A stretch of DNA of 64,000 bases. It comes from Candidatus Falkowbacteria bacterium. Its GTDB lineage: Bacteria > Patescibacteriota > Patescibacteriia > Patescibacteriales > UBA12465. Each line of letters begins with the position of its first letter. Position 1 is the first letter of the stretch. Location: positions 2,625 to 66,624 of the forward strand of contig JBAXPN010000003.1 of the NCBI GenBank assembly GCA_037132255.1, written 5' to 3'. Positions 2,556 to 33,099 of this stretch are shown one piece after another. Below the pieces are notes generated by a model, which worked only from the letters and a program-made list of their open reading frames with translations, made no database searches and was not told the DNA's origin. Made by a program: the position numbers and the translations under genes.

Positions 2556-3668
2556 ATGAAAAAACTCCTAGTTTTAAATTACGAATTTCCGCCATTAGGA
2601 GGAGGTGCTAGTCCCGTAAGCTATGAAATAGCAGAGCGTCTGTCAGAAACAGGCGATTTTGATATTGACGTTGTTACAATGGGCTATAAAGACTTACCAA
2701 AATATGAAGAGATAAATAGTAATTTTAGAATACATAGGGTTAAATGTTTAAGAAGTAAAAAAGAGCTTTGTCATCCTTGGGAGCAGGCAACTTATTTGAT
2801 TTCAGGTTGGTTTAAATGCAAAGAATTACTTAAAAATAATAAATATGATATTTGTCATTGTCATTTTATTATACCGACTGGTGTTTTAGCTTTGAAATTA
2901 AAAAAGAAATTTTGTTTGCCTTATATTATTACTAGCCATGGTAGTGATGTTTTGGGATATAATGCAAGATTTAAAATTTTGTATCCTTTTTTAGTAAAGC
3001 CTTGGAAAAATATTTTAGATAATGCTAATAAAATTATTTCCCCATCAAATTTTCTTAAAGCCGAAATATTAAAAGTTTATCCCAAATTAAATAATGAAAA
3101 GATAGAAGTAATTCCCAATGGCTTTAATACCAATAAATTTAAGCCACAAGAAAAGAAAAAATATATTTTTTCATCCGGTAGGTTATTAGTAAACAAAGGT
3201 TTTCAATATCTAATTCAAGCAGTATCCGATGAAGATATTAGTTATGAAGTGCATATTGCTGGTGATGGCCCAATGATGGCCGAGCTAAAAAAATTAGCAG
3301 AAAAATCAAAAACAAAAATAATTTTTCATGGTTGGCTTGATAATAACGGTCAAGAGTATAAAGATTTGTTAGAACAGGCAGCAATATACGTTTTAGCTTC
3401 AGAGAAGGAAAATGCTAGCATAGCTTTACTAGAAGCTATGAGCGCTGGTTGTGCAGTTTTTACAACCAATGTTTCTGGGTGCCCAGAGACAGTCGGAAAT
3501 GCTGGGTTATTAATAAATCCCAGAGATGCTAATGATTTAGAGATAAAATTGAATATCGTTGTTAATGATGATAATATGTTGGTTAAATTACAAAAAATAG
3601 CAGGAGAGAGGGTAAAAGTCATTTACGACTGGAATATTGTGTTAAAAGAATATATAAAAGTTTTATGA
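2556..3668 (+). CDS. Glycosyltransferase family 4 (GT-B fold)
   Basis: N-terminal EFPPLGGGAS and C-terminal E-x7-E-like region (SEKENASIALLEAMSAGCAVFTT). Confidence 0.8.
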   Translation: MKKLLVLNYEFPPLGGGASPVSYEIAERLSETGDFDIDVVTMGYKDLPKYEEINSNFRIHRVKCLRSKKELCHPWEQATYLISGWFKCKELLKNNKYDICHCHFIIPTGVLALKLKKKFCLPYIITSHGSDVLGYNARFKILYPFLVKPWKNILDNANKIISPSNFLKAEILKVYPKLNNEKIEVIPNGFNTNKFKPQEKKKYIFSSGRLLVNKGFQYLIQAVSDEDISYEVHIAGDGPMMAELKKLAEKSKTKIIFHGWLDNNGQEYKDLLEQAAIYVLASEKENASIALLEAMSAGCAVFTTNVSGCPETVGNAGLLINPRDANDLEIKLNIVVNDDNMLVKLQKIAGERVKVIYDWNIVLKEYIKVL

Positions 3669-4766: not shown

Positions 4767-6038
4767 ATGATTAATTTAATAAAAAATAATTTTAAAAAAC
4801 ATAGTGAGACAATCAATAATTTTACGTGGAGATGTCTACAAATATTTGGTAAACAAGGGGTGACATTTTTAATTTTTGTATTATGTTCAAGGTTACTTAC
4901 CCCTTATAATTTTGGTATCTATAACTATATTCTTGCAATTATATTCTTCTTAGTCATGTTTGGAGATTTTGGTATTTCGACTGCTACTTCAAAATATGTA
5001 GCTGAGTATAATATTGTTAATAAAAATAAATTAAAAGCTGTTTTGTTTAATTCAGGATTGATAATATTTATTATAACATCTGTAATTACTATAGTAACTG
5101 TATCCATAGGATCTTTTTACTTGAAAGATAAGTATACTTATTTTTTATGGCTGCTTCCGTTAATTTTTTTGTCTCCGATGACTTCCTTGTATGACGGAAT
5201 TTACAGAGGGTTAAAGAAATTTAAGCAACTGGCTATAATCTCGTTAGCCATCGGTTTTGTTTCTATTCCTTTTGTTTATTTTATGGTAAATAATTATGGT
5301 TTAGTTGGCGCATTATTTTCTCAAAATATTTTTTATTTAAGTCTTTTGGCGGGGCTTTATTTTGGATATAGCGATTTTCATTTTAAATTTAACAAAGAAG
5401 TTATAAAAGAAATTGGAAAATACAGTTTTACTTACGGGGTAGCCGTAATAGGGTATTACTTATTTTCAAGAGTAGACATTCTAATACTTGGCCATTATGG
5501 ATTTATTAAAGAAATAGCAGTTTATGAGATTATTAATAAAATTTTTATGATTCTATTAATCCCGTTTTCCATAATTGGGCAAATTATTGGCCCTAATTTT
5601 ACAGAATTTTATATAAAAAAACAGTACAATAAAATTTATTATAAACTAAAAAAATACATCATACTATCAATTGTTAGCGGCTTTATATTTGGAGTATCGA
5701 CTTATTTTATATTACCTTATATTATAAAATTATTCTTTTTTAATTATTATAATAATATATTTTCATTAATATTTTTTCCATGTGTAATAATATATTCTCT
5801 ACAAGTTTATGCAACTTATATTAATTCGGGAATTATTGTTTCTACCGGACATGCTAAATTAATGACCTATCTAAATTTATGGTTAGGTATACTAAATTTA
5901 ATTTTAGCATTAGTATTAATTAGATTGTTTGGTTTTGTCGGTGTTATATATGCAACTATGATATCTTTAATAATTGGAATTATAATTTTGCATACGCAAT
6001 ACTTCTATATAATAAATAAATTAAATAACGATGAATAA
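4767..6038 (+). CDS. Polysaccharide flippase, Wzx/MOP superfamily
   Basis: About 12 predicted TM helices with a typical O-antigen-transporter N-terminus. I prefer the ATG at 4767 over the ORF-track start at 4707, which overlaps the previous gene. Confidence 0.7.
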   Translation: MINLIKNNFKKHSETINNFTWRCLQIFGKQGVTFLIFVLCSRLLTPYNFGIYNYILAIIFFLVMFGDFGISTATSKYVAEYNIVNKNKLKAVLFNSGLIIFIITSVITIVTVSIGSFYLKDKYTYFLWLLPLIFLSPMTSLYDGIYRGLKKFKQLAIISLAIGFVSIPFVYFMVNNYGLVGALFSQNIFYLSLLAGLYFGYSDFHFKFNKEVIKEIGKYSFTYGVAVIGYYLFSRVDILILGHYGFIKEIAVYEIINKIFMILLIPFSIIGQIIGPNFTEFYIKKQYNKIYYKLKKYIILSIVSGFIFGVSTYFILPYIIKLFFFNYYNNIFSLIFFPCVIIYSLQVYATYINSGIIVSTGHAKLMTYLNLWLGILNLILALVLIRLFGFVGVIYATMISLIIGIIILHTQYFYIINKLNNDE

Positions 6039-6969
6039 TAATTTAAAAGTATCTATTATTATGTCCGCCTATAATGCGGAAAAGTATATAGCAGAGTCAA
6101 TAGAGTCTATTTTAAACCAATCCTTTAAAGATTTTGAATTTATTATATTTGATGACGGGTCTACTGATGATACAAAAAAAATCATCAGAACTTATGCTAA
6201 AAAAGATAATAGAATAATTCCTGTATATAATAACAAGAATATAGGTTATATTGGGTTTATTAGAAATTTAAATAAGGGAATGAATATGGCGAAATGTAAG
6301 TATATTGCAAGAATGGATGCGGATGATATTTCGTTACCAAAACGACTAGAGAAGCAGTTGGATTATTTAGAAAATAATAATGATATTTTTTTGATTGGCA
6401 CATCTGTAAATATAGTTGATGAAAATGGGATAATAATAAGGAAGAATGTTTTTTACATTGATCCTGAAAAAATGCTTCCTATTAAAAATTGCATATATCA
6501 CCCCACTATTATGTTTAGAAATGATAACAGTATAACTTATAGAGAAAAAATTCTTTATTGTGAAGATTATGATTTATATTTAAGATTAATTACTTTAAAT
6601 AAAAAAATAGTAAATTTAAAAGAGACACTACTAAATTATAGAGTTATTGAGCAATCAGTTTCACGAACAAAGGCGGCTTTACAACAATTTTATAGTGAAG
6701 AAGCAAAAACTTTATACTTAGAAAGGAAAAAAATCGGTCATGATAACTATGATTCATTTAATTCTGATAAAGTTGAATTAGATATATTTTCAAAAAAATG
6801 TTTATTAATTGAAATAAAATCGTGTTCTTATATTAATAACTACATAGAAGTTAATAGGCTTTGCAAAAGTTATTTTATTAATCATGGTTTTAATAGTAAT
6901 ATATTTTTATATTATTTACTAAGTTTATTGCCTCAAAAAATTATTAATTTTATTAAGTGTTTTAAATAA
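6031..6969 (+). CDS. Glycosyltransferase family 2
   Basis: VSIIMSAYNAEKYI..FDDGSTDDT..ARMDADDIS: the GT2 DxD/DAD signature. Confidence 0.85.
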   Translation: MNNNLKVSIIMSAYNAEKYIAESIESILNQSFKDFEFIIFDDGSTDDTKKIIRTYAKKDNRIIPVYNNKNIGYIGFIRNLNKGMNMAKCKYIARMDADDISLPKRLEKQLDYLENNNDIFLIGTSVNIVDENGIIIRKNVFYIDPEKMLPIKNCIYHPTIMFRNDNSITYREKILYCEDYDLYLRLITLNKKIVNLKETLLNYRVIEQSVSRTKAALQQFYSEEAKTLYLERKKIGHDNYDSFNSDKVELDIFSKKCLLIEIKSCSYINNYIEVNRLCKSYFINHGFNSNIFLYYLLSLLPQKIINFIKCFK

Positions 6970-15530: not shown

Positions 15531-15666
15531 AGCGCTGGCGGTTCTCATACCAGTATAATTAGTGTATAATATCAAATGAATACCTTAAGAGAAAAGCTTC
15601 TATTCGCCGTTCTTTAGAAGCAAAAAATTGATGATATTCAATTTTTATAATTATTATTTACTTACT

Positions 15667-18600
15667 ATGTATAAAAAAAATATAAACTACATTAAATTGA
15701 TAATATTTTCTGTTTTTTTTCTATTTGCCCCTTTTTCCTTAAACGCAGCTACTTCGTTAACTGATGATTTTACTGGCACCACAATAAATACAGGAAAATG
15801 GACGGAGTATGATACTGGCGGAATTGGCGGGACAGCTGGTAATGTCCAGCAGAATGACGTCTTAACTATTACTGGCGACGGATCATGGAATCATAATGGC
15901 TTAAAGTCTGTCCAGACTTTCGACAGAACTTACGGCGATGTTACAATCGAAGGCGATTGGCAATTGAAAAATTCTTGTGCTACGGATTCCGCCCCCTCCG
16001 TTGCAGTTATGTATGGCGATTGGGTAAATGGAATTCAGCAGTCTGGGACGCTTTCATTAATTTATTTTAGTGGTAAATTTGCTTTATATAATTCATCGAC
16101 TACTTATAATCTTGCAACTCAGATAACTTGTGTCGCGAATACCACGATTCATTATAAATTTGTAATTAGACAAGTCGGAGGCGTTGACGTCTATCTGAAT
16201 GGTAGCGCGACCCCTAATGGGTCTCTTACTATAGCCCAGGCTCCAAATACATTCACTAATAAATACATTCTTTTGCAGCAAAAAAGTAACACTATCCCCG
16301 CGAATGGCAATTCAACAATTACTCTCGATAATTTACTTGTTGCAACCAGCGATGCTCCAGCGGCTCCTGCTAATTTAACAACCACTCCTGCATCCGGCCA
16401 AGTAGCTCTTAGCTGGACAGCTCCAGCAAACGGAGGTAGTACTATTACCGATTATATAATTCAATATAAACTTTCTTCTGAACCCTCTGTTTGGGCTACT
16501 TTTGCTGACGGGACCTCAGCCGCAACCACAACAATTATAAGTGGTCTTTCTAATGGTTTATCGTATGATTTTAGAGTTTCGGCTATAAATGGAATAGGAA
16601 CAGGTAGTTTTTCAAGCGTTGTTTCATCTATCCCAAATCTTTATGTTCCGTCTGCACCTCCTGGTTTAATCGCTAGTTTTAATTCTAATAATCGAATTAA
16701 CTTATTATGGACTACACCTATAACAGATGGTGGAGCAAATATTACTGATTATTTAGTAGAATACAAATTAACGTCAGAGCCTACAGTTTGGACTACTTTT
16801 GTGGATGGAGTATCAACATCAACCACATCTGTGGTCACTGGTCTTACTGGCGGCGCAACTTATAATTTTAGAGTTTCGGCGATAAATTCAGTTGGCACAA
16901 GTTCAAACTCAAATATTGTGACTAAGAAAGCTGGAGCCTACTTACTTTACGATGATTTTACTGGGACAACTATAGATACGAATAAATGGATAGAGTACGA
17001 TTCAGTGGCGAGCGGCGGAACAGCCGGAAAAGTTCAGCAGAATAATGCGCTTAGCATGATCGGTACGAGTAATTGGACTACTAATGCTTTAAAATCTGTC
17101 CAGACTTTTGATCGAAGTATTGGCGACATAGTTATAGAAACAGATTGGACAATTAGCGATTGTTCCTCGGTAACGGCTGTCGGTGGAATTTCCTATGGCG
17201 ATTGGGTGACGAATGGCACGGTTGCCAATAATACCCTGATGCTCCAGTTCAGTAATGGGACGTTTAAATTATTTCATTGGCCATCGGCTATTTCGTCGTC
17301 TGCGTCATGCACGAGCGGCGTGCCTATCCATATAAAGGAAGTTATTTATAAAGCTGGCGGCATGGATGTATTTTTAAATGGTAGCAGCACGGCCAGCGTT
17401 TCTCTTAGTGTAATAAATGCCCCCTCCACATTTAATAACCAGCCAATATCATTCCAGCAATTTAATGCTTTAAATTCATTCTTTGATAATTTAACAGTTT
17501 CAAATACCGGTTATACGATTCCGGATAAAACAGTTGGCTTATTATCAACCCCACGAGATAATAGTGTCGAATTATCTTGGACAACTCCGGCAAATGGAGG
17601 TAGCGCCATTACTGACTATCTCATACAATATAAACTTTCTTCTGAGCCATCTGCTTGGATAACTTTTGTTCATGATGCCTCGTCCTCTTCGGCCGCTTTC
17701 GTTACTGGACTTACTAATGGCCAGAGCTATGATTTTAAAGTTTCAGCTTTAAATATAAATGGAATAGGTACAAGTTCTGATATTACAACTGCTGTTCCAG
17801 TCTCAAGTGTTCCATCTGCTCCGAGAAGTTTATTAGCAACTAACACAATAAGCAGCCAGATAAATTTATCTTGGAACGTGCCTATAACAAATGGTGGGGC
17901 GAGTATCTCAGATTATTTAATAGAATATAAATTAAGCTCGGAGCCAACTGTATGGACAACTTTTCCCGATGGAGTATCATTGGCAAGTTCGACGATCGTC
18001 ACAGGGCTGACTAATGGTTTATACTATGACTTTAGGGTTTCCGCTATAAATAGTTATGGGGTTGGGACAAATTCTTCTATAGTTACAAAAGCGGCCGTTA
18101 ATCCGACTTCAGTTCCACCTGTTGCAAGTTCAGTCGCTATTGTTGGTCAATCTCATGTTTCCGAATATTTACTTGGTTCATATGTTTACTCCGATGAAAA
18201 TGCAAATCCGGAAGGGCTAACAACTTATCGTTGGCTAAGGGCTAATACTTTGGGTGGAGCTTATTCGCCAGTCTCCGGAGCGACAAATATTAACTATACG
18301 GTTAGTACTGACGATTTAAATAAATATTTAAAACTCGAAATTACCCCAGTTTCAACTGTGACCCCATTTACCGGAACGCCGGTTTTGAGTAATGCCATCG
18401 GACCAATTTCAGCGCCCACTTATATTTATCACATATTATCTACGGGGCAAAGTTTATCTTTGGGCGTTGCTGGTACTCCGACTCTTTCTACTTCGCAGCC
18501 GTATAATAATAAAATGTTAAATGGTACAAATTTTACAGCTCTTGTTGAGGGAAGCGCCGAAACACCTGCGAGTGCAATGGGCAATGGAATTACTTTTGTA

Positions 18601-21477
18601 AATGGACAACAAATAGTTGTGACGAAACATGGCGTCGGGGGCACTGCCTATTCTGGACTTAAAAAAGGAACAACCCCGTATGCCAATGGTATACAACAGG
18701 CAATAGACGTTAGGAACGCAGCGACCCTTCTGGGAAAAACATCGCAAGTACTGGGCGTGACTGTCGTTCACGGAGAAACTGATAACGCTGGTGGCAATGC
18801 CCCTTATTATGAGGGTTATTTGGTAGAGTGGCAGCAGAATTATGAGGCGGATATTAAAGCTATAAATGGTCAAGTCGGGACAATACCTTTATTTACTGAT
18901 CAAATGGATTCCTGGACGACTCAAGGACATGCTACTTCCGGTATTCCGATTGCCCAACTTGCTGCCGCAGAAGATTATCCGGGAAAAATAATTCTCGTTG
19001 GTCCTAAATATTTTTTAACTTATGCAAGTGGACCGCATCTAACTAATACTAGCTATAGATGGTTAGGAGAATACTATGCGAAAGTTATTAAGAAAGTTTA
19101 TTTTGATAAAATTTCCTGGAGACCGCTTTCACCCGACTCCGTTAATTTAATTGGAAACGTAATCTACGCAAAATTTCATGTACCGACTGGGTCGCTCGCT
19201 TTTGATACAACGCTTGTCAAGCAAAAAAGTAACTATGGTTTTGAATATTACGACTCCGCTTCTTCAACTTCAATTAATTCGGTTGAAATTATTAATTCAG
19301 ATACCGTAAAAATAACTCTAAGTAATAGTCCAACCGGAACTAATCAGAGATTGCGTTATGCCTACACTGGAGTAGCATCTTCGGACGCTGGCGCGCAACC
19401 AGATGGTTCACCTCGCGGAAATTTACGGGATACAGATCCAGAAATTTCTCTTTCCGGTAATACTCTTTATGATTGGGCTGTTAATTTTGACAAAGCGATT
19501 GCTTCTACGTCAGATACTAATTTGCCGGTTGTTACTGAATTTAGTTTGCCTGCAACATCCAGCTCTTTGACAGTAAATATTTCTTCATTTAAAGCCACCG
19601 ACGATTATTCGGTTACCGCTTATTTATTAACCGAGTCTTCTTCAACTCCTTTGTTGGGAGATTCTGGTTGGCTACCCGCAGCGCAAACAAATTATACATT
19701 TTCTACCCAAGGAACGAAGACCCTGTATGCTTGGGCGAAAGATGAGGCTGGTAATATCTCAAATGCAATGAGCGCATCAGTTTTAATTTTATTGCCGGCA
19801 ACAAGGTTTACATTTAGTGGCCCAGCATCAGGTTACGTAAATAGTGTTTCGACAAATTTTACAATTACTCCGGATAATTCATATACCGGAACAATTACAA
19901 TCGCCGCATCAGGGTCAGGTAGCACTGGTATGGCAAATATTATTTTAACTTTTGTGAATTCACAAAGTCCTCAAACATTCACAATCACACCTATTAGCGA
20001 AGGAACCGTTATTCTAACGCCAACTAATAGTGGGGGCTTGGCTAACCCATCAAACATAACTTACTCTGCTAACGCAATCCCGCCAGGGGCACCAGCAATC
20101 TCGTCCTTAACCGCAAATAATATAAATTCTAGTGATATAAATATTTCGTGGCTTACTGATACTTTATCATCGAGTAAGCTTGAATATGGCTTAACAAATA
20201 ATTATGGAAATACTACGACTGAAACTGACACCTCTCCTAGAGTAACTCAGCATAGTGTAAATTTGGGCAATTTATCATCTTGTGTTACATATTCTTACCG
20301 TGTACGCTCAAAAAACTCTTTATTAAACGAAACAATAAGCTCTGGTAGCACCTTCACGACTGGCGGCTGCACCGCTTCCTCGACTGTTTCGGAAAATATA
20401 AGCTCTCAAATTGATAAAACGATTGGCGGCACATTAATTTTAGAAGATGTTAATTCGCATGGTTTAACGTTAACAATCCCTGTTGGCTTCGCTACATCCA
20501 GCGCTAATTTTCAAGCTCACCAATTGAATAAAGATACGGTGCTAGAAACTATTTTTACTCCAAGCGGAGTATTCTCAGCCGGCGATTACGTTTATGAATT
20601 AAAAGCCATGTCCGGTATCGCTAATGTCATTTCAGTTTTTGACACCCCGTTAACAATTACAATCGCATATGACGCAAGCGATATTTCCGGTTTAGACGAA
20701 TCAAGTCTTAAAATATATCGCTGGGATAGCGGTGCTTGGACGCAGTTAAACAATTGTACAGTCGATACGAGAGCTAAAATAGCAACTTGCGAAACAAACC
20801 ATTTTTCAACTTTTAGTCTTTTTGGTCAAAAAATAGTAAATAATAGTAATCCCGTTTTGCAAACGGGGAATTCTATGCCGATCTCTTGGACGCTTGCACC
20901 ATTAACTCCGGTTGGTGGATTTCGGGTAAGCGCCGATAGCCCAACCAACAACCATGAAATTAATTTAAATTTTGTTGCGGGCGATGATACTGATAAATTA
21001 GCTATCTCCAATTTTTCCGATTTTAGAAATGCTAGTTTAGAATTATTTACTAAAACTAAAATTTGGGATATCTGTGCCGGATTAGAAGCTTGTAGCTATG
21101 GCTTTCACAATGTTTATGTTAAGTTTTATACTAAATACGGTGTAAGCTCAGATATTGTTAACGCGACGGTTAATTATAAGTCGTCAATGCCGAGTACGAT
21201 AGATAACAACAAGCCAAGCGTTTCTGTGAAAAAAATGCAATTTACTAAAGACTTGAAACAGGGGCAAAAAAATAACGATGTAAAATTATTACAGCAATTT
21301 TTAAATTCCATAAATTATTTGGTTGCTAAATCTGGCGCTGGTTCAAAAGGTAAAGAAACAACTTTTTTTGGTTCGGCGACTAAGGCTGCCTTAATTATAT
21401 TTCAAAAAACTAATAATATAGTGCCCGCCAGTGGTTTGTTTGGACCAATGACCAGAAAATTAGTTAACAGTAAATAG
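15667..21477 (+). CDS. Giant secreted multidomain surface protein: 2 x (ConA/LamG-like + 2 FN3), beta-sandwich repeats, SASA/SGNH-like carbohydrate esterase, further Ig/FN3 domains, C-terminal peptidoglycan-binding domain
   Basis: Signal peptide starts at MYKKNINYIKLIIFSVFFLFAPFSLNA (ATG 15667; the ORF track extends to 15628). FN3 motifs (W..P..GGS.ITDY.I.YK). STGQSLSLG and VVHGETDNAG resemble the sialate-O-acetylesterase GQSN / QGE(S/T)D motifs. The C-terminal NNDVKLLQQFLN..GPMTRKLV resembles PG_binding_1. Confidence 0.75.
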   Translation: MYKKNINYIKLIIFSVFFLFAPFSLNAATSLTDDFTGTTINTGKWTEYDTGGIGGTAGNVQQNDVLTITGDGSWNHNGLKSVQTFDRTYGDVTIEGDWQLKNSCATDSAPSVAVMYGDWVNGIQQSGTLSLIYFSGKFALYNSSTTYNLATQITCVANTTIHYKFVIRQVGGVDVYLNGSATPNGSLTIAQAPNTFTNKYILLQQKSNTIPANGNSTITLDNLLVATSDAPAAPANLTTTPASGQVALSWTAPANGGSTITDYIIQYKLSSEPSVWATFADGTSAATTTIISGLSNGLSYDFRVSAINGIGTGSFSSVVSSIPNLYVPSAPPGLIASFNSNNRINLLWTTPITDGGANITDYLVEYKLTSEPTVWTTFVDGVSTSTTSVVTGLTGGATYNFRVSAINSVGTSSNSNIVTKKAGAYLLYDDFTGTTIDTNKWIEYDSVASGGTAGKVQQNNALSMIGTSNWTTNALKSVQTFDRSIGDIVIETDWTISDCSSVTAVGGISYGDWVTNGTVANNTLMLQFSNGTFKLFHWPSAISSSASCTSGVPIHIKEVIYKAGGMDVFLNGSSTASVSLSVINAPSTFNNQPISFQQFNALNSFFDNLTVSNTGYTIPDKTVGLLSTPRDNSVELSWTTPANGGSAITDYLIQYKLSSEPSAWITFVHDASSSSAAFVTGLTNGQSYDFKVSALNINGIGTSSDITTAVPVSSVPSAPRSLLATNTISSQINLSWNVPITNGGASISDYLIEYKLSSEPTVWTTFPDGVSLASSTIVTGLTNGLYYDFRVSAINSYGVGTNSSIVTKAAVNPTSVPPVASSVAIVGQSHVSEYLLGSYVYSDENANPEGLTTYRWLRANTLGGAYSPVSGATNINYTVSTDDLNKYLKLEITPVSTVTPFTGTPVLSNAIGPISAPTYIYHILSTGQSLSLGVAGTPTLSTSQPYNNKMLNGTNFTALVEGSAETPASAMGNGITFVNGQQIVVTKHGVGGTAYSGLKKGTTPYANGIQQAIDVRNAATLLGKTSQVLGVTVVHGETDNAGGNAPYYEGYLVEWQQNYEADIKAINGQVGTIPLFTDQMDSWTTQGHATSGIPIAQLAAAEDYPGKIILVGPKYFLTYASGPHLTNTSYRWLGEYYAKVIKKVYFDKISWRPLSPDSVNLIGNVIYAKFHVPTGSLAFDTTLVKQKSNYGFEYYDSASSTSINSVEIINSDTVKITLSNSPTGTNQRLRYAYTGVASSDAGAQPDGSPRGNLRDTDPEISLSGNTLYDWAVNFDKAIASTSDTNLPVVTEFSLPATSSSLTVNISSFKATDDYSVTAYLLTESSSTPLLGDSGWLPAAQTNYTFSTQGTKTLYAWAKDEAGNISNAMSASVLILLPATRFTFSGPASGYVNSVSTNFTITPDNSYTGTITIAASGSGSTGMANIILTFVNSQSPQTFTITPISEGTVILTPTNSGGLANPSNITYSANAIPPGAPAISSLTANNINSSDINISWLTDTLSSSKLEYGLTNNYGNTTTETDTSPRVTQHSVNLGNLSSCVTYSYRVRSKNSLLNETISSGSTFTTGGCTASSTVSENISSQIDKTIGGTLILEDVNSHGLTLTIPVGFATSSANFQAHQLNKDTVLETIFTPSGVFSAGDYVYELKAMSGIANVISVFDTPLTITIAYDASDISGLDESSLKIYRWDSGAWTQLNNCTVDTRAKIATCETNHFSTFSLFGQKIVNNSNPVLQTGNSMPISWTLAPLTPVGGFRVSADSPTNNHEINLNFVAGDDTDKLAISNFSDFRNASLELFTKTKIWDICAGLEACSYGFHNVYVKFYTKYGVSSDIVNATVNYKSSMPSTIDNNKPSVSVKKMQFTKDLKQGQKNNDVKLLQQFLNSINYLVAKSGAGSKGKETTFFGSATKAALIIFQKTNNIVPASGLFGPMTRKLVNSK
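15757..18117 (+). repeat. Intragenic tandem duplication of a ~396-codon module (lectin-like domain + 2 FN3), period 1188 nt
   Basis: The DDFTGTTI(N/D)T.KW.EYD motif recurs at 15763 and 16951. FN3 segments are visibly similar at nucleotide level (for example ~16444 versus ~17608). Confidence 0.8.
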
Positions 21478-28166: not shown

Positions 28167-29135
28167 TTAATCTTTGTCGTTATGTCCTGAGTTTCCTTTG
28201 CCCATTTTATTATCATGCTCTTTGTCATTTTTATTTTCGTTTTCGTTATTTCTTTTATCAGCATGAATTTTTTTATCTTTGGTAGTTATTGATACTGAGT
28301 TTGATGCTGGGGAGGTGCTTCCGGCGGCATTAAACGCAACTACTGTATATGAATATGTTGTTCCGGCTACTATTGAAGAATCCATGAAGTTACGATTTCG
28401 AGATGTGCCGACAACAATACCATCTCTTAAAACTCTATAACCCTTAACGCTTGCGTGGTTGATTGGCGCATCCCAAGTCAATTTAATTTTTTTATGATCC
28501 TTAAGGTCAGCTCTTAAACCAGTCGGGGTATTAAGAGTAATAGCGCTGCTTACAGCAGTCGTTGTTGCGGTCACCGAGCTAGAAGTAGCAGATACATTTC
28601 CATTAGCATCAAAGGCGCTAACGTTAAAAATGTATGAAGTCGAAGAAGCAAGACCGGTACTAATATAACTATTTATCGTTGAAGTTCCAACTTGAGAATT
28701 ATTGATATAAACTTTATATCCAGTAACTCCGACGTTATCGCTTGATTTAGTCCAAGTCAAATTAATTTGATTAGGATAAATTGCGGCAGCGCTCAAGTTT
28801 GTCGGCACGCTAGGTGTAGTCGTATCGATAATTAATAAATCACCGACATAGTAATTTGCCAATGCGTTATTAGCATTTACATTGCTTGCATGTTTACCAT
28901 TAAATAAACTGCTGCCGTCGATTCCACATAGACTATTAATAGCGACTTGTCCTCCGGGATGGAGTGTTAGATAACTTGTGACATTATAAACCTTGTTATT
29001 TACGATGGTCCAGCAATCCGCGGCTACATTATGTACGCCTACTTGCTGGCTTGTATATGTATTTGCGGCCAAAGCTGGGGTAGCGAAGGGAAGCAAAAAC
29101 ACAAGACCTAACAAGAGTGAAGAAAGTTTTTTCAT
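28167..29135 (-). CDS. Secreted cytochrome b5-like heme-binding domain + 2 FN3 domains + His/Asp/Lys/Asn-rich tail
   Basis: Signal peptide. VHNVAADCWTIVNNKVYNVTSYLTLHPGG matches the Cyt-b5 HPGG motif. Two FN3 repeats (W..S.DNVGVTGY.VY). Confidence 0.75.
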   Translation of the reverse strand: MKKLSSLLLGLVFLLPFATPALAANTYTSQQVGVHNVAADCWTIVNNKVYNVTSYLTLHPGGQVAINSLCGIDGSSLFNGKHASNVNANNALANYYVGDLLIIDTTTPSVPTNLSAAAIYPNQINLTWTKSSDNVGVTGYKVYINNSQVGTSTINSYISTGLASSTSYIFNVSAFDANGNVSATSSSVTATTTAVSSAITLNTPTGLRADLKDHKKIKLTWDAPINHASVKGYRVLRDGIVVGTSRNRNFMDSSIVAGTTYSYTVVAFNAAGSTSPASNSVSITTKDKKIHADKRNNENENKNDKEHDNKMGKGNSGHNDKD

Positions 29136-29174
29136 AAATTTTTTAATTAATTAATAAAACCTTTATACTATATG

Positions 29175-29201
29175 ATACAAAGCGGATTGTCTTTTGTTAC
29201 A
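29175..29201 (-). promoter_or_regulatory. ECF-type promoter candidate TGTAAC-N16-TGTAT facing the cyt-b5/FN3 gene
   Basis: Bipartite motif and spacing are identical to the element at 29229..29255 on the other strand. Confidence 0.55.
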
Positions 29202-29228
29202 TAGCGTTATATAATGATACTTACCCCT

Positions 29229-29255
29229 TGTAACATTTACCCTTAATTATTGTAT
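29229..29255 (+). promoter_or_regulatory. ECF-type promoter candidate TGTAAC-N16-TGTAT facing the sigma/anti-sigma operon
   Basis: Same motif as 29175..29201. The position fits autoregulation of the ECF sigma gene (ATG at 29271). Confidence 0.55.
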
Positions 29256-29270
29256 AAATAGATAGAAGAT

Positions 29271-29768
29271 ATGCGAAAGAATAGGGATAATTTTTTGCCT
29301 TATTATAACCAATATAAAGATAAAATATATAATTATTTTTTATATCGAGTTGGTTTTGATAAGCCCTTAGCCGAGGATTTAAGCTCGGAAGTGTTTATAA
29401 AGGCCTTAAAGAGTTTTGATGATTTTGATAAGACCAAAAAATTCCAGTCTTGGATATATATGATTGCCCATAACCATTTAGTTAATCACTATAAAATATC
29501 TGGTCGCGTCGTTCCCATAGAACCATTAGAAAATTTTCTTCATTATACTGATAGCAGCGCTGAAGAAAAGTATGAGCTCGCGAGAGTTTTAAAAATAATT
29601 GATGCAATGGAAAGCTCTGAATCAGAAATATTGCGATACAAGTTTATTGATCAGCTGAGCAATGACGAGATTGCCGAAATTCTCGAGAAGGAAGAGGGCG
29701 CCGTCAGGACGCAAATAAGTCGGAGTTTAGTAAAATTAAGAGAAATATTAAACAGTAATTCTAAATAG
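29271..29768 (+). CDS. ECF-family RNA polymerase sigma factor
   Basis: Region 2 (EDLSSEVFIKA..FQSWIYMIAHNHLVNHY) and region 4 (LSNDEIAEIL..GAVRTQISRSLVKLR). Confidence 0.85.
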   Translation: MRKNRDNFLPYYNQYKDKIYNYFLYRVGFDKPLAEDLSSEVFIKALKSFDDFDKTKKFQSWIYMIAHNHLVNHYKISGRVVPIEPLENFLHYTDSSAEEKYELARVLKIIDAMESSESEILRYKFIDQLSNDEIAEILEKEEGAVRTQISRSLVKLREILNSNSK

Positions 29769-29769
29769 T

Positions 29770-30624
29770 ATGGAAAATCTGGAAAAGCTCTTGTCGGAAT
29801 TACCGCAGAATAAATTAAGCCGACAAGCAGATTTAAAAATTAAATTTAAACTTTATAAAATTATAATCCTAAATAACTTAGCGAGTATTTTTGATTTCTC
29901 GAATTTGCGCATCTTTTCTACGAATAAGGCTTTGGGCGTGGCCGCAGTGATATTATTAATCTGTGGCACAACTTCGGTTTACGCTTATGCCAGCAATGAT
30001 ATTTTGCCAGGTAGTCAGCTCTATCCAGTTAAAATTGCGCTTGAAAAAATAGAGCAAAAAATTACAACAAATAATACAGCTAAAATCGCTAATCTAGAAA
30101 AATTTTCTGAACGTCGTCTGAACGAAGCGGTTGTTTTAAGTCAAAAAAAGCAGGAGTCCGAAAAAGAGGGCCAAAAGATAAATGAAGACATTAAAAAAAA
30201 TATTGCTACTGAGCTTAGTAACCATGAGGCGGTCGCTAATCACATTAATAATTTAGAAGAAGGGAATAATGTCGAGGCATTAATCACTGAGACTAAAAAG
30301 AATGATCAGGCAGAAATAAATTACCTTGATAAAATTGGTGAATATGCAGCGAGCAACAAGAATCAAGAAATTTTAGATAAGGTAAATGAAGCTAAGGATA
30401 AAATTAAAAAACAGGAGTATAAACGCGGTAACGGTAATGGGTGGAAAAAAGATGAGCAGTTAAATGAGGGAGTATCTAAACAGGATAAAATAAGTGAAGA
30501 TAATGCCGCACCCGCTATTAGCACGTCAACTGAAATTATAGAAGCAAATAGGAATGAAAGCTCTACTCCCGAAATAAGAAGCGACAGAGAGCGTAGACGC
30601 GAAAGAGATAATGAGGATAGATAA
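29770..30624 (+). CDS. Putative anti-sigma factor, single-pass membrane protein with DUF5667-like domain
   Basis: Begins 1 nt after the sigma gene stop. One TM helix followed by ILPGSQLYPVKIALEKIE, then a charged coiled-coil tail. Confidence 0.55.
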   Translation: MENLEKLLSELPQNKLSRQADLKIKFKLYKIIILNNLASIFDFSNLRIFSTNKALGVAAVILLICGTTSVYAYASNDILPGSQLYPVKIALEKIEQKITTNNTAKIANLEKFSERRLNEAVVLSQKKQESEKEGQKINEDIKKNIATELSNHEAVANHINNLEEGNNVEALITETKKNDQAEINYLDKIGEYAASNKNQEILDKVNEAKDKIKKQEYKRGNGNGWKKDEQLNEGVSKQDKISEDNAAPAISTSTEIIEANRNESSTPEIRSDRERRRERDNEDR

Positions 30625-32893: not shown

Positions 32894-33030
32894 GGTTACT
32901 TGTTTTTTGGGTTAATATTATGGTTTATTCTTAATCTATTGTTAAGTTACGAGAAGAATTATTGTAACATTTAGAGCTCTTTTGTCAATTATCGTTTAAA
33001 ATTAGCAGTCACTCCTTACGGCGGAAATAG

Positions 33031-33059
33031 TTGACTAAATTTACTTTAGTTGCTAAAAT
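33031..33059 (+). promoter_or_regulatory. Sigma70-like promoter TTGACT-17-TAAAAT for the efflux operon
   Basis: Direct reading, about 40 nt upstream of the ATG at 33100. Confidence 0.5.
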
Positions 33060-33099
33060 AATCAATAGTTAAATAGTATTAATTTATATTCTATATTTT

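Follow-up and report, generated by a model that had tools for sequence, protein, structure and literature searches.

What reads a two-part motif that occurs once on each strand of a single intergenic gap? The question is raised by a 64,000-nucleotide stretch of DNA from Candidatus Falkowbacteria bacterium of the Patescibacteriota (assembly GCA_037132255.1, contig JBAXPN010000003.1, positions 2,625 to 66,624), referred to here as the window. In it, a gene for a secreted cytochrome b5 (Cyt-b5)/FN3 protein on the minus strand, whose start codon ends at 29135, and a gene for a sigma factor of the extracytoplasmic function (ECF) type on the plus strand, whose ATG is at 29271, diverge from a gap of 135 nt. 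The two motifs in this gap are very probably back-to-back promoters of the RNA polymerase that carries the ECF sigma factor encoded beside them, a reading supported by comparison with orthologous loci.

The plus-strand copy consists of TGTAAC (29229-29234) and TGTAT (29251-29255) with 16 nt between them, and the minus-strand copy of TGTAAC (29201-29196) and TGTAT (29179-29175), likewise 16 nt apart, so that each copy faces one of the two genes. The earlier note had described this arrangement, and both the sequence and shuffle counts confirm it. The exact pattern TGTAAC-N16-TGTAT has two matches in 64 kb when both strands are read, against a mean of 0.02 expected from dinucleotide-preserving shuffles, none of which (0/100) contained two or more. 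Tolerating one mismatch added no further site in the window. Similarly, with a weight matrix of 36 columns built from 59 orthologous sites, the two copies score 25.3 and 24.3 bits and every other position of the window falls below 8 bits. No RNA element was matched by Rfam at E ≤1 between 28900 and 29500. A partial third copy at 32963-32973, which the earlier note had listed, is attributable to chance, because it consists of the TGTAACA heptamer only, has TCAAT at N16 and scores below 8 bits; the heptamer turns up in the window about as often as chance predicts (8 observed, 5.5 expected). The efflux operon near it has a promoter of its own, TTGACT-17-TGcTAAAAT. The gap between purH (-) and this HlyD-ABC efflux operon (+), at 32894-33099, holds two extended -10 promoters of canonical form, one per strand, namely the one just given (+) and TTGACA-16-TGnTACAAT (-), which show the housekeeping promoter type of this genome.

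Conservation of the paired motif

A one-genome-per-species scan yielded 80 loci encoding relatives of the sigma factor. Forty-one of these (L004-L044) are orthologs, with identities from 85% to about 35%, and the remaining 39 (227 kb) encode distant relatives. The original pattern was used unchanged as an a-priori probe in the 260 nt upstream of sigma. With at most one mismatch it was present there in 37/41 orthologous loci, and 25 exact copies were distributed across 22 of the 41. Four more exact copies lie elsewhere in the same loci: three immediately precede genes that encode secreted or membrane proteins, and one precedes an open reading frame (ORF) for a 36-aa hydrophobic peptide. The 39 distant loci hold none. 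Thus the motif is found upstream of orthologous sigma/anti-sigma operons, where its absence, according to the earlier note, would have counted against the proposal.

Alignment gave 59 distinct sites, 36 proximal to sigma and 23 divergent, and the spacer is 16 nt in all of them. In the 36 sigma-proximal sites the motif columns carry 1.6-2.0 bits and the spacer and flank columns 0-0.5 bits, with the consensus tGtAACAtttt-N-tTGTATaaT. For the candidate promoter facing sigma (P_sig), the -35 element is TGTAACA followed by a T-tract (29229..29235, +), exact in the window, in which the G, A and C of G.AAC are almost invariant among the orthologous sites (1.8-2.0 bits). Its -10 element, TGTAT (29251..29255, +), begins 16 nt past TGTAAC and lies 15 nt ahead of the ATG, and its G, T and A are invariant (36/36). 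This comparative footprint supports autoregulation of the sigma factor through an ECF-type promoter, as had been proposed. For the candidate promoter facing the Cyt-b5/FN3 gene (P_div), TGTAACA followed by an A-tract (29195..29201, -) is invariant in the 23 distinct sites at 1.7-2.0 bits per position, and TGTAT (29175..29179, -) lies 39 nt ahead of the ATG, with TTGTA kept in 23/23. The divergent consensus reads TGTAACAAAa-N-tTTGTA(T/C)TA. The bases just past the -35 differ between the two classes, with a T-tract in the sigma-proximal sites (TGTAACAtttt; 29235-29239, +, in the window) and an A-tract in the divergent ones (TGTAACAAAa; 29191-29194, -). In Bacillus subtilis, T-tracts just past the -35 modulate ECF selectivity (PMC5758882).

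The minus-strand copy occurs together with its presumed target. Twenty-three orthologous loci have a divergent ORF that encodes a signal peptide and FN3 domains, and in 23/23 of these the copy points toward the FN3 ORF, 36-82 nt ahead of its start codon; no minus-strand copy was found in orthologous loci that have no divergent gene. An N-terminal Cyt-b5 domain is present in 13 of the divergent proteins and missing from 10. The divergent promoter proposed in the earlier note is therefore supported, but its description of the target as a secreted heme-binding protein applies to 13/23 loci, and the constant target is a secreted FN3 protein.

Promoter type and the polymerase that would read it

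The published ECF pattern combines an 'AAC' -35, a 'CGT' or CGTA -10 and a -35-proximal T-tract, with spacers of 14-17 bp (PMC5758882). The 'AAC' is found here, with A and C nearly invariant in the 59 sites, and the 16-nt spacer lies inside the published range. In the clade of the window the GT(A) of the -10 is invariant and its first base is T or G, never C, whereas the ECF core is typically 'CGT'. Sister sigma clades in the same phyla have TGTAAC-N16-CGTC(T) upstream, the classical ECF form. The difference follows the protein: at the sigma-2 position equivalent to Asn84 of RpoE, Asn is found with [T/G]GTA at 37/37 detected motifs and Asp with CGT at 12/12, and this position has been tied experimentally to -12/-13 specificity (PMC7776599). 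TGTA may be regarded as a variant of the CGT core rather than a mismatch of promoter type, and the switch from C to T/G at -13 appears to track an Asp-to-Asn change in the specificity loop of sigma-2. In addition, ECF sigma factors usually autoregulate (PMC7826278).

A distant clade of sigma factors in Patescibacteria (L057, L062, L064, L067, L071, L075, L076, L080, L082 and L083) carries TGTAACA-N15-CGTC(T/A), located 70-100 nt upstream of the start of the tblastn match. These sigma factors have Asp at the Asn84 equivalent and an N-terminal extension of 25-30 aa relative to that of the window, and the start codon lies exactly 6 nt past the pentamer, so that the sigma mRNAs are uniformly leaderless by prediction.

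The position of the start codon provides a further constraint. In 20 related loci, including all eight of the CGTCT type, the in-frame start codon follows the -10 pentamer by exactly 6 nt (in 14 of them) or exactly 7 nt (in the other 6), which implies leaderless mRNAs in these loci. The geometry agrees within 1-2 nt with the two likely ECF start positions relative to the -10 that have been reported (PMC7776599). Calibrated on these 20 loci, transcription in the window is predicted to start at 29262..29264 (+) for P_sig, with a leader of about 7-9 nt, and at 29166..29168 (-) for P_div, with a leader of about 31-33 nt. The sigma mRNA of the window would thus be nearly leaderless.

The best-surviving alternative is that both sites are housekeeping (sigma-70/SigA) promoters, to be read as GTAACA-17-TATCAT on the minus strand or with TATAAA as the -10 on the plus strand, with TG just upstream of the -10. 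A consensus scan does return the minus-strand version at 9/12, and the -10 of many orthologs, TGTATAAT, includes a perfect TATAAT. The likening of the -35 to ECF promoters in the earlier note is supported, but its statement that neither element resembles TATAAT was too strong, given that TGTAT(A) overlaps a TATAAT-like hexamer. Nevertheless, the intergenic regions of the window hold canonical promoters of the form TTGACA-16/18-TATAAT, several of them extended by TGn at the -10, and only these two sites have a GTAACA-like -35. Across the 59 diverged sites the G of the -35 is invariant and the element never drifts toward TTGACA, as selection by sigma-70 would allow. Moreover, the TG abuts the hexamer, unlike TGnTATAAT with one base between, and the CGTCT of the sister clades, at the same 16-nt spacing, is not sigma-70-like. 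With TATAAT as the -10, transcription in the 20 loci spaced at 6-7 nt would also have to begin within the ORF. Finally, the gap already contains a separate canonical sigma-70 promoter, so that this alternative is left with a small probability.

That promoter, P1 (TTGTCT-17-TATAAT; 29187..29215, +), faces the sigma gene and is the best consensus match in the gap (10/12). It was overlooked in the earlier inventory of the gap, which is incomplete in this respect. A comparable plus-strand promoter, often TAGACA-16-TGcTATAAT, lies between the ECF promoters in about 17/25 orthologous loci. In the window the -35 and spacer of P1 overlap P_div, and occupancy of P1 and P_div may be mutually exclusive.

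The sites might also be ECF-type promoters read by another alternative sigma factor encoded elsewhere in the genome. That ECF sigma factors overlap in the promoters they recognise is documented in B. subtilis (PMC5758882), and the genome was seen here as a 64-kb window. Within that window, however, no second ECF sigma gene was found; furthermore, the motif travels with the adjacent sigma gene (37/41 loci) and becomes CGTC together with the sigma-2 residue in the sister clades, which makes a different reader distinctly improbable.

Read as an inverted repeat, TGTTACA (29195-29201) and TGTAACA (29229-29235) could form an operator by which a dimeric transcription factor controls both genes, and the two heptamers are indeed perfectly complementary, 27 nt apart. 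Across orthologs the two -35 elements lie anywhere from 22 to 135 nt apart, whereas the distance from heptamer to TGTAT stays fixed at 16 nt, which argues strongly against a palindromic operator. Single copies also occur where there is no divergent gene, the copy is fixed at 6-7 nt from the ATG in 20 loci, and no transcription-factor gene is conserved in the locus; an operator is accordingly highly unlikely. Chance co-occurrence in an AT-rich intergenic region has a practically negligible probability: the motif specifies just 11 bases, its heptamer alone is at chance frequency and exact matches to a 14-base version commonly arise by chance in metagenomes (0/120 matches listed beside a related sigma gene), but two matches fall in one 135-nt gap against the 0.02 expected, and conservation in dozens of diverged genomes refutes it.

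Several observations weigh against recognition by the adjacent sigma factor. The -10 is without the canonical C of 'CGT', and P_div can also be read as a 9/12 match to the sigma-70 consensus in which TGTAT(A) merges into a TATAAT-like hexamer. The covariation of residue and -10 rests on about two clades and may trace back to a single evolutionary event or to a few. A subclade made up of L015, L018-L024 and L027-L029 has a degenerate -35 before sigma itself (TGA.AC or CGCAAC, at locus position ~2967-3001, some 35 nt upstream of sigma) while the divergent copy is a perfect TGTAAC, a combination that simple autoregulation explains less well. The regulon scan covered the window and the 6.5-kb loci, a local rather than a genome-wide view. 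A metagenome-wide scan for TGTAACA-N13-TTTGTAT matched at least 120 loci, with 0/120 among the matches listed near a related sigma or FN3 gene; these are chance matches only, and chance dominates at that scale. Two other features of the same subclade were observed: TGTAT stands just 6-7 nt ahead of the ATG (11 nt in L029), implying leaderless mRNA, and the sigma-4 residue aligned with position 173 of RpoE is K/R, not Q.

Flanking genes and a proposed circuit

The sigma gene (29271..29768, +) encodes 165 aa in which only Sigma70_r2 and Sigma70_r4_2/r4 are detected by Pfam, and the protein is assigned to the ECF sigma factors (group 4) following the definition stated in PMC7826278. It scores 80.9 bits against the ECF superfamily model TIGR02937 of NCBIfam (cut-off 42.9), which confirms its membership. 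The best equivalog in NCBIfam is the BldN family, TIGR02952, for which its 100.6 bits lie well below the threshold of 206.45; it likewise stays far below the cut-offs for SigW (58.6 vs 209), SigX (59.6 vs 260) and SigM (51.8 vs 199). Among solved structures the nearest is 6dxo, a Streptomyces ECF sigma factor, followed by SigW (5wuq, 4e-14).

One nucleotide past the sigma stop begins a gene (29770..30624, +) for a putative single-pass membrane anti-sigma factor, which consists of a short N-terminal segment, one hydrophobic helix and then an extracytoplasmic DUF5667 domain (Pfam). This gene is directly downstream of sigma in L004-L039, except in L033, where the DNA ends about 50 nt past the sigma gene, and all orthologs of at least about 40% identity with downstream DNA retain it adjoining. 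Position, synteny and topology suggest an anti-sigma role. No recognisable anti-sigma domain (class I anti-sigma domain, zf-HC2, RskA or similar) was found in it by Pfam, NCBIfam or PDB searches, the DUF5667 match falls outside the N-terminal 50 residues, and sequence search found no solved relative. Nor was any mention of DUF5667 found in the literature searched.

The divergent gene (28167..29135, -) encodes a 322-aa protein with a signal peptide, a Cyt-b5 domain (Pfam, 6.7e-17) and two FN3 domains (fn3, 1.8e-17). HPGG and the second His are present in its Cyt-b5 domain, which has cytochrome b5 relatives in the PDB at about 1e-9. A 1949-aa ORF at 15628-21477 (+) is weakly similar to the FN3 part of this protein (25-28% identity, E 1e-7 to 2e-5) and probably encodes a large surface protein whose repeats resemble FN3; no copy of the motif was found upstream of it.

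Identical and near-identical copies of the locus belong to metagenome-assembled genomes of Patescibacteria, the candidate phyla radiation (CPR). The titles of many records, TPA assemblies, that name an 'uncultured Gammaproteobacteria bacterium' (L005, L015, L017, L021, L022 and others) and of one that names a 'Bacillota bacterium' (L013) look wrong, the contigs being AT-rich and CPR-like and the locus typically that of Patescibacteria.

Taken together, these elements would compose the following circuit. P1 probably supplies a basal level of sigma and anti-sigma, and the DUF5667 membrane protein would hold sigma sequestered and inactive until an extracytoplasmic or envelope cue frees it. Region 4 of the released sigma would then bind G.AAC at the -35, and region 2 would bind and melt xGTA at the -10, where Asn72, at the Asn84 equivalent, would accept T or G instead of C at -13, with transcription beginning about 7-9 nt past TGTAT. 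From P_sig, transcription would yield the sigma/anti-sigma operon, giving positive feedback with a co-induced anti-sigma, and from P_div the gene for the secreted cytochrome b5/FN3 effector.

Regulon, related systems and meaning

The weight matrix finds only the two sites in the window, and in the related loci it finds extra sites of 17-28 bits before other genes. In L011, an exact site (4864-4899, +) precedes an ORF (4900-6210) for a ferric-reductase-like membrane protein with Ferric_reduct, FAD and NAD domains. This gene lies downstream of the anti-sigma gene, and its ATG is 9 nt past TGTAT. Genes for secreted metal-binding repeat proteins of the MopE type are preceded by plus-strand sites in L031 (481-516), L033 (1327-1362), L034 (1095-1130), L036 (1121-1156) and L037 (1590-1625). 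These five loci have no divergent FN3 gene, and the site lies 50-90 nt before an upstream gene on the same strand whose product has 4-7 Cu-binding_MopE repeats. Extra sites were also found before a gene for a secreted DUF5667 protein in L041 and a gene for an SLH-domain protein in L042. In L025, the exact site (2592-2618, +) is that of the 36-aa hydrophobic peptide (ORF 2639-2749), which is followed by a terminator-like hairpin (~2885-2918), all upstream of sigma's own promoter. The 39 distant loci gave three weak matrix matches, one of them at -40 of an Asn-type sigma gene. Homologs of the ferric reductase and the MopE-like proteins were not found in the window.

The regulon therefore appears to be local, comprising the sigma operon and, next to it, one or two genes whose products are secreted or lie at the surface. 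It has been predicted that 47.8% of ECF sigma factors control three or fewer promoters, as 'local regulators' (PMC7776599). The Cyt-b5 target and the ferric reductase of L011 hint at an extracytoplasmic redox theme, and a metal/redox theme shared by the targets is suggestive.

The closest functional analogue is BcrS/AbcS (ECF16) of Brucella melitensis, in which the sigma operon diverges from the bcrXQP operon and the starts were mapped by 5'-RACE (rapid amplification of cDNA ends; PMC8315932). RpoE7 of Sinorhizobium meliloti is arranged in the same way (PMC6180224). BcrS/AbcS shares with the module proposed here two ECF promoters with a TGTAAC -35 in one divergent region, autoregulation of the sigma/anti-sigma operon through one of them, control of an adjacent target operon through the other, and a small local regulon. 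However, the ECF16 consensus is (T/C)GTAAC-N17-CGAA, whereas the spacer here is 16 and the -10 TGTA(T), so these promoters are not of the ECF16 type. The putative anti-sigma factor (DUF5667), the target (Cyt-b5/FN3) and the phylum (Patescibacteria rather than Alphaproteobacteria) also differ.

The promoters likewise resemble those of B. subtilis SigW (tGAAACnTTTt-N-CGTA), SigX and SigM in the AAC of the -35, the T-tract, the 16-nt spacer and the xGTA core of the -10 (PMC5758882). In contrast to SigW, the -35 here is TGTAAC instead of TGAAAC, the first base of the -10 is T/G instead of C, and the regulon is apparently tiny rather than large. SigW, SigX and SigM are autoregulated, as is proposed for the present module. 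Several of their genes carry a SigA promoter as well. A third likeness is to BldN of Streptomyces, the best NCBIfam equivalog and, through 6dxo, the best solved relative. BldN also governs genes whose products are secreted to the cell surface, namely the chaplins and rodlins (PMC4125116), and its partner is a small single-pass anti-sigma factor without a classical anti-sigma domain (PMC6101532). Nonetheless, with a score below the family cut-off, the present sigma factor is not a BldN, and its putative anti-sigma factor differs in carrying DUF5667.

The argument itself, from a two-block motif before a sigma operon and a divergent gene, is of the same type as in Staron 2009, Casas-Pastor 2021 and Todor 2020. 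In the accessible portions of these ECF surveys Patescibacteria/CPR are not discussed (PMC7776599, PMC7826278), and CPR phyla go unmentioned in the accessible portions of the main text of the ECF re-classification paper. No substantive link between ECF sigma factors and Patescibacteria was found in the literature searched.

As far as it can be read from sequence, the architecture is textbook: an autoregulated ECF sigma factor, a membrane partner transcribed with it and a divergent promoter for the target. What is distinctive is modest, namely the CPR lineage, a -10 whose T/G in place of C goes with Asn in the specificity loop, and the high share of ECF transcripts predicted to have no leader or almost none. 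Patescibacteria are uncultured and have small genomes with few regulators, and to our knowledge almost nothing is known of their transcriptional regulation. For these organisms the locus provides a concrete, testable motif, TGTAACA-N15-TGTAT, together with a predicted local regulon of two promoters. The roughly 60 aligned sites from diverged genomes could serve for scanning CPR genomes and for calibrating predictions of start sites and leaderless transcripts, and they offer a natural example in which a sigma-2 loop residue (Asn vs Asp) tracks the -13 base. Beyond this, it may be proposed, tentatively and with more doubt than confidence, that the sigma/DUF5667 pair is a lineage-wide local switch of Patescibacteria for surface proteins of redox, metal-binding and adhesion function, acting through leaderless or nearly leaderless mRNAs and an Asn-set T/G-GTA -10. 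Its predicted targets would be Cyt-b5/FN3 or FN3-only proteins in the clade of the window, the ferric reductase of L011, and MopE-type proteins in more distant orthologs. If so, it would mark the first time that a promoter code and regulon are defined for a CPR regulator, with a possible tie to extracellular metal or electron handling or to the host attachment of these episymbionts.

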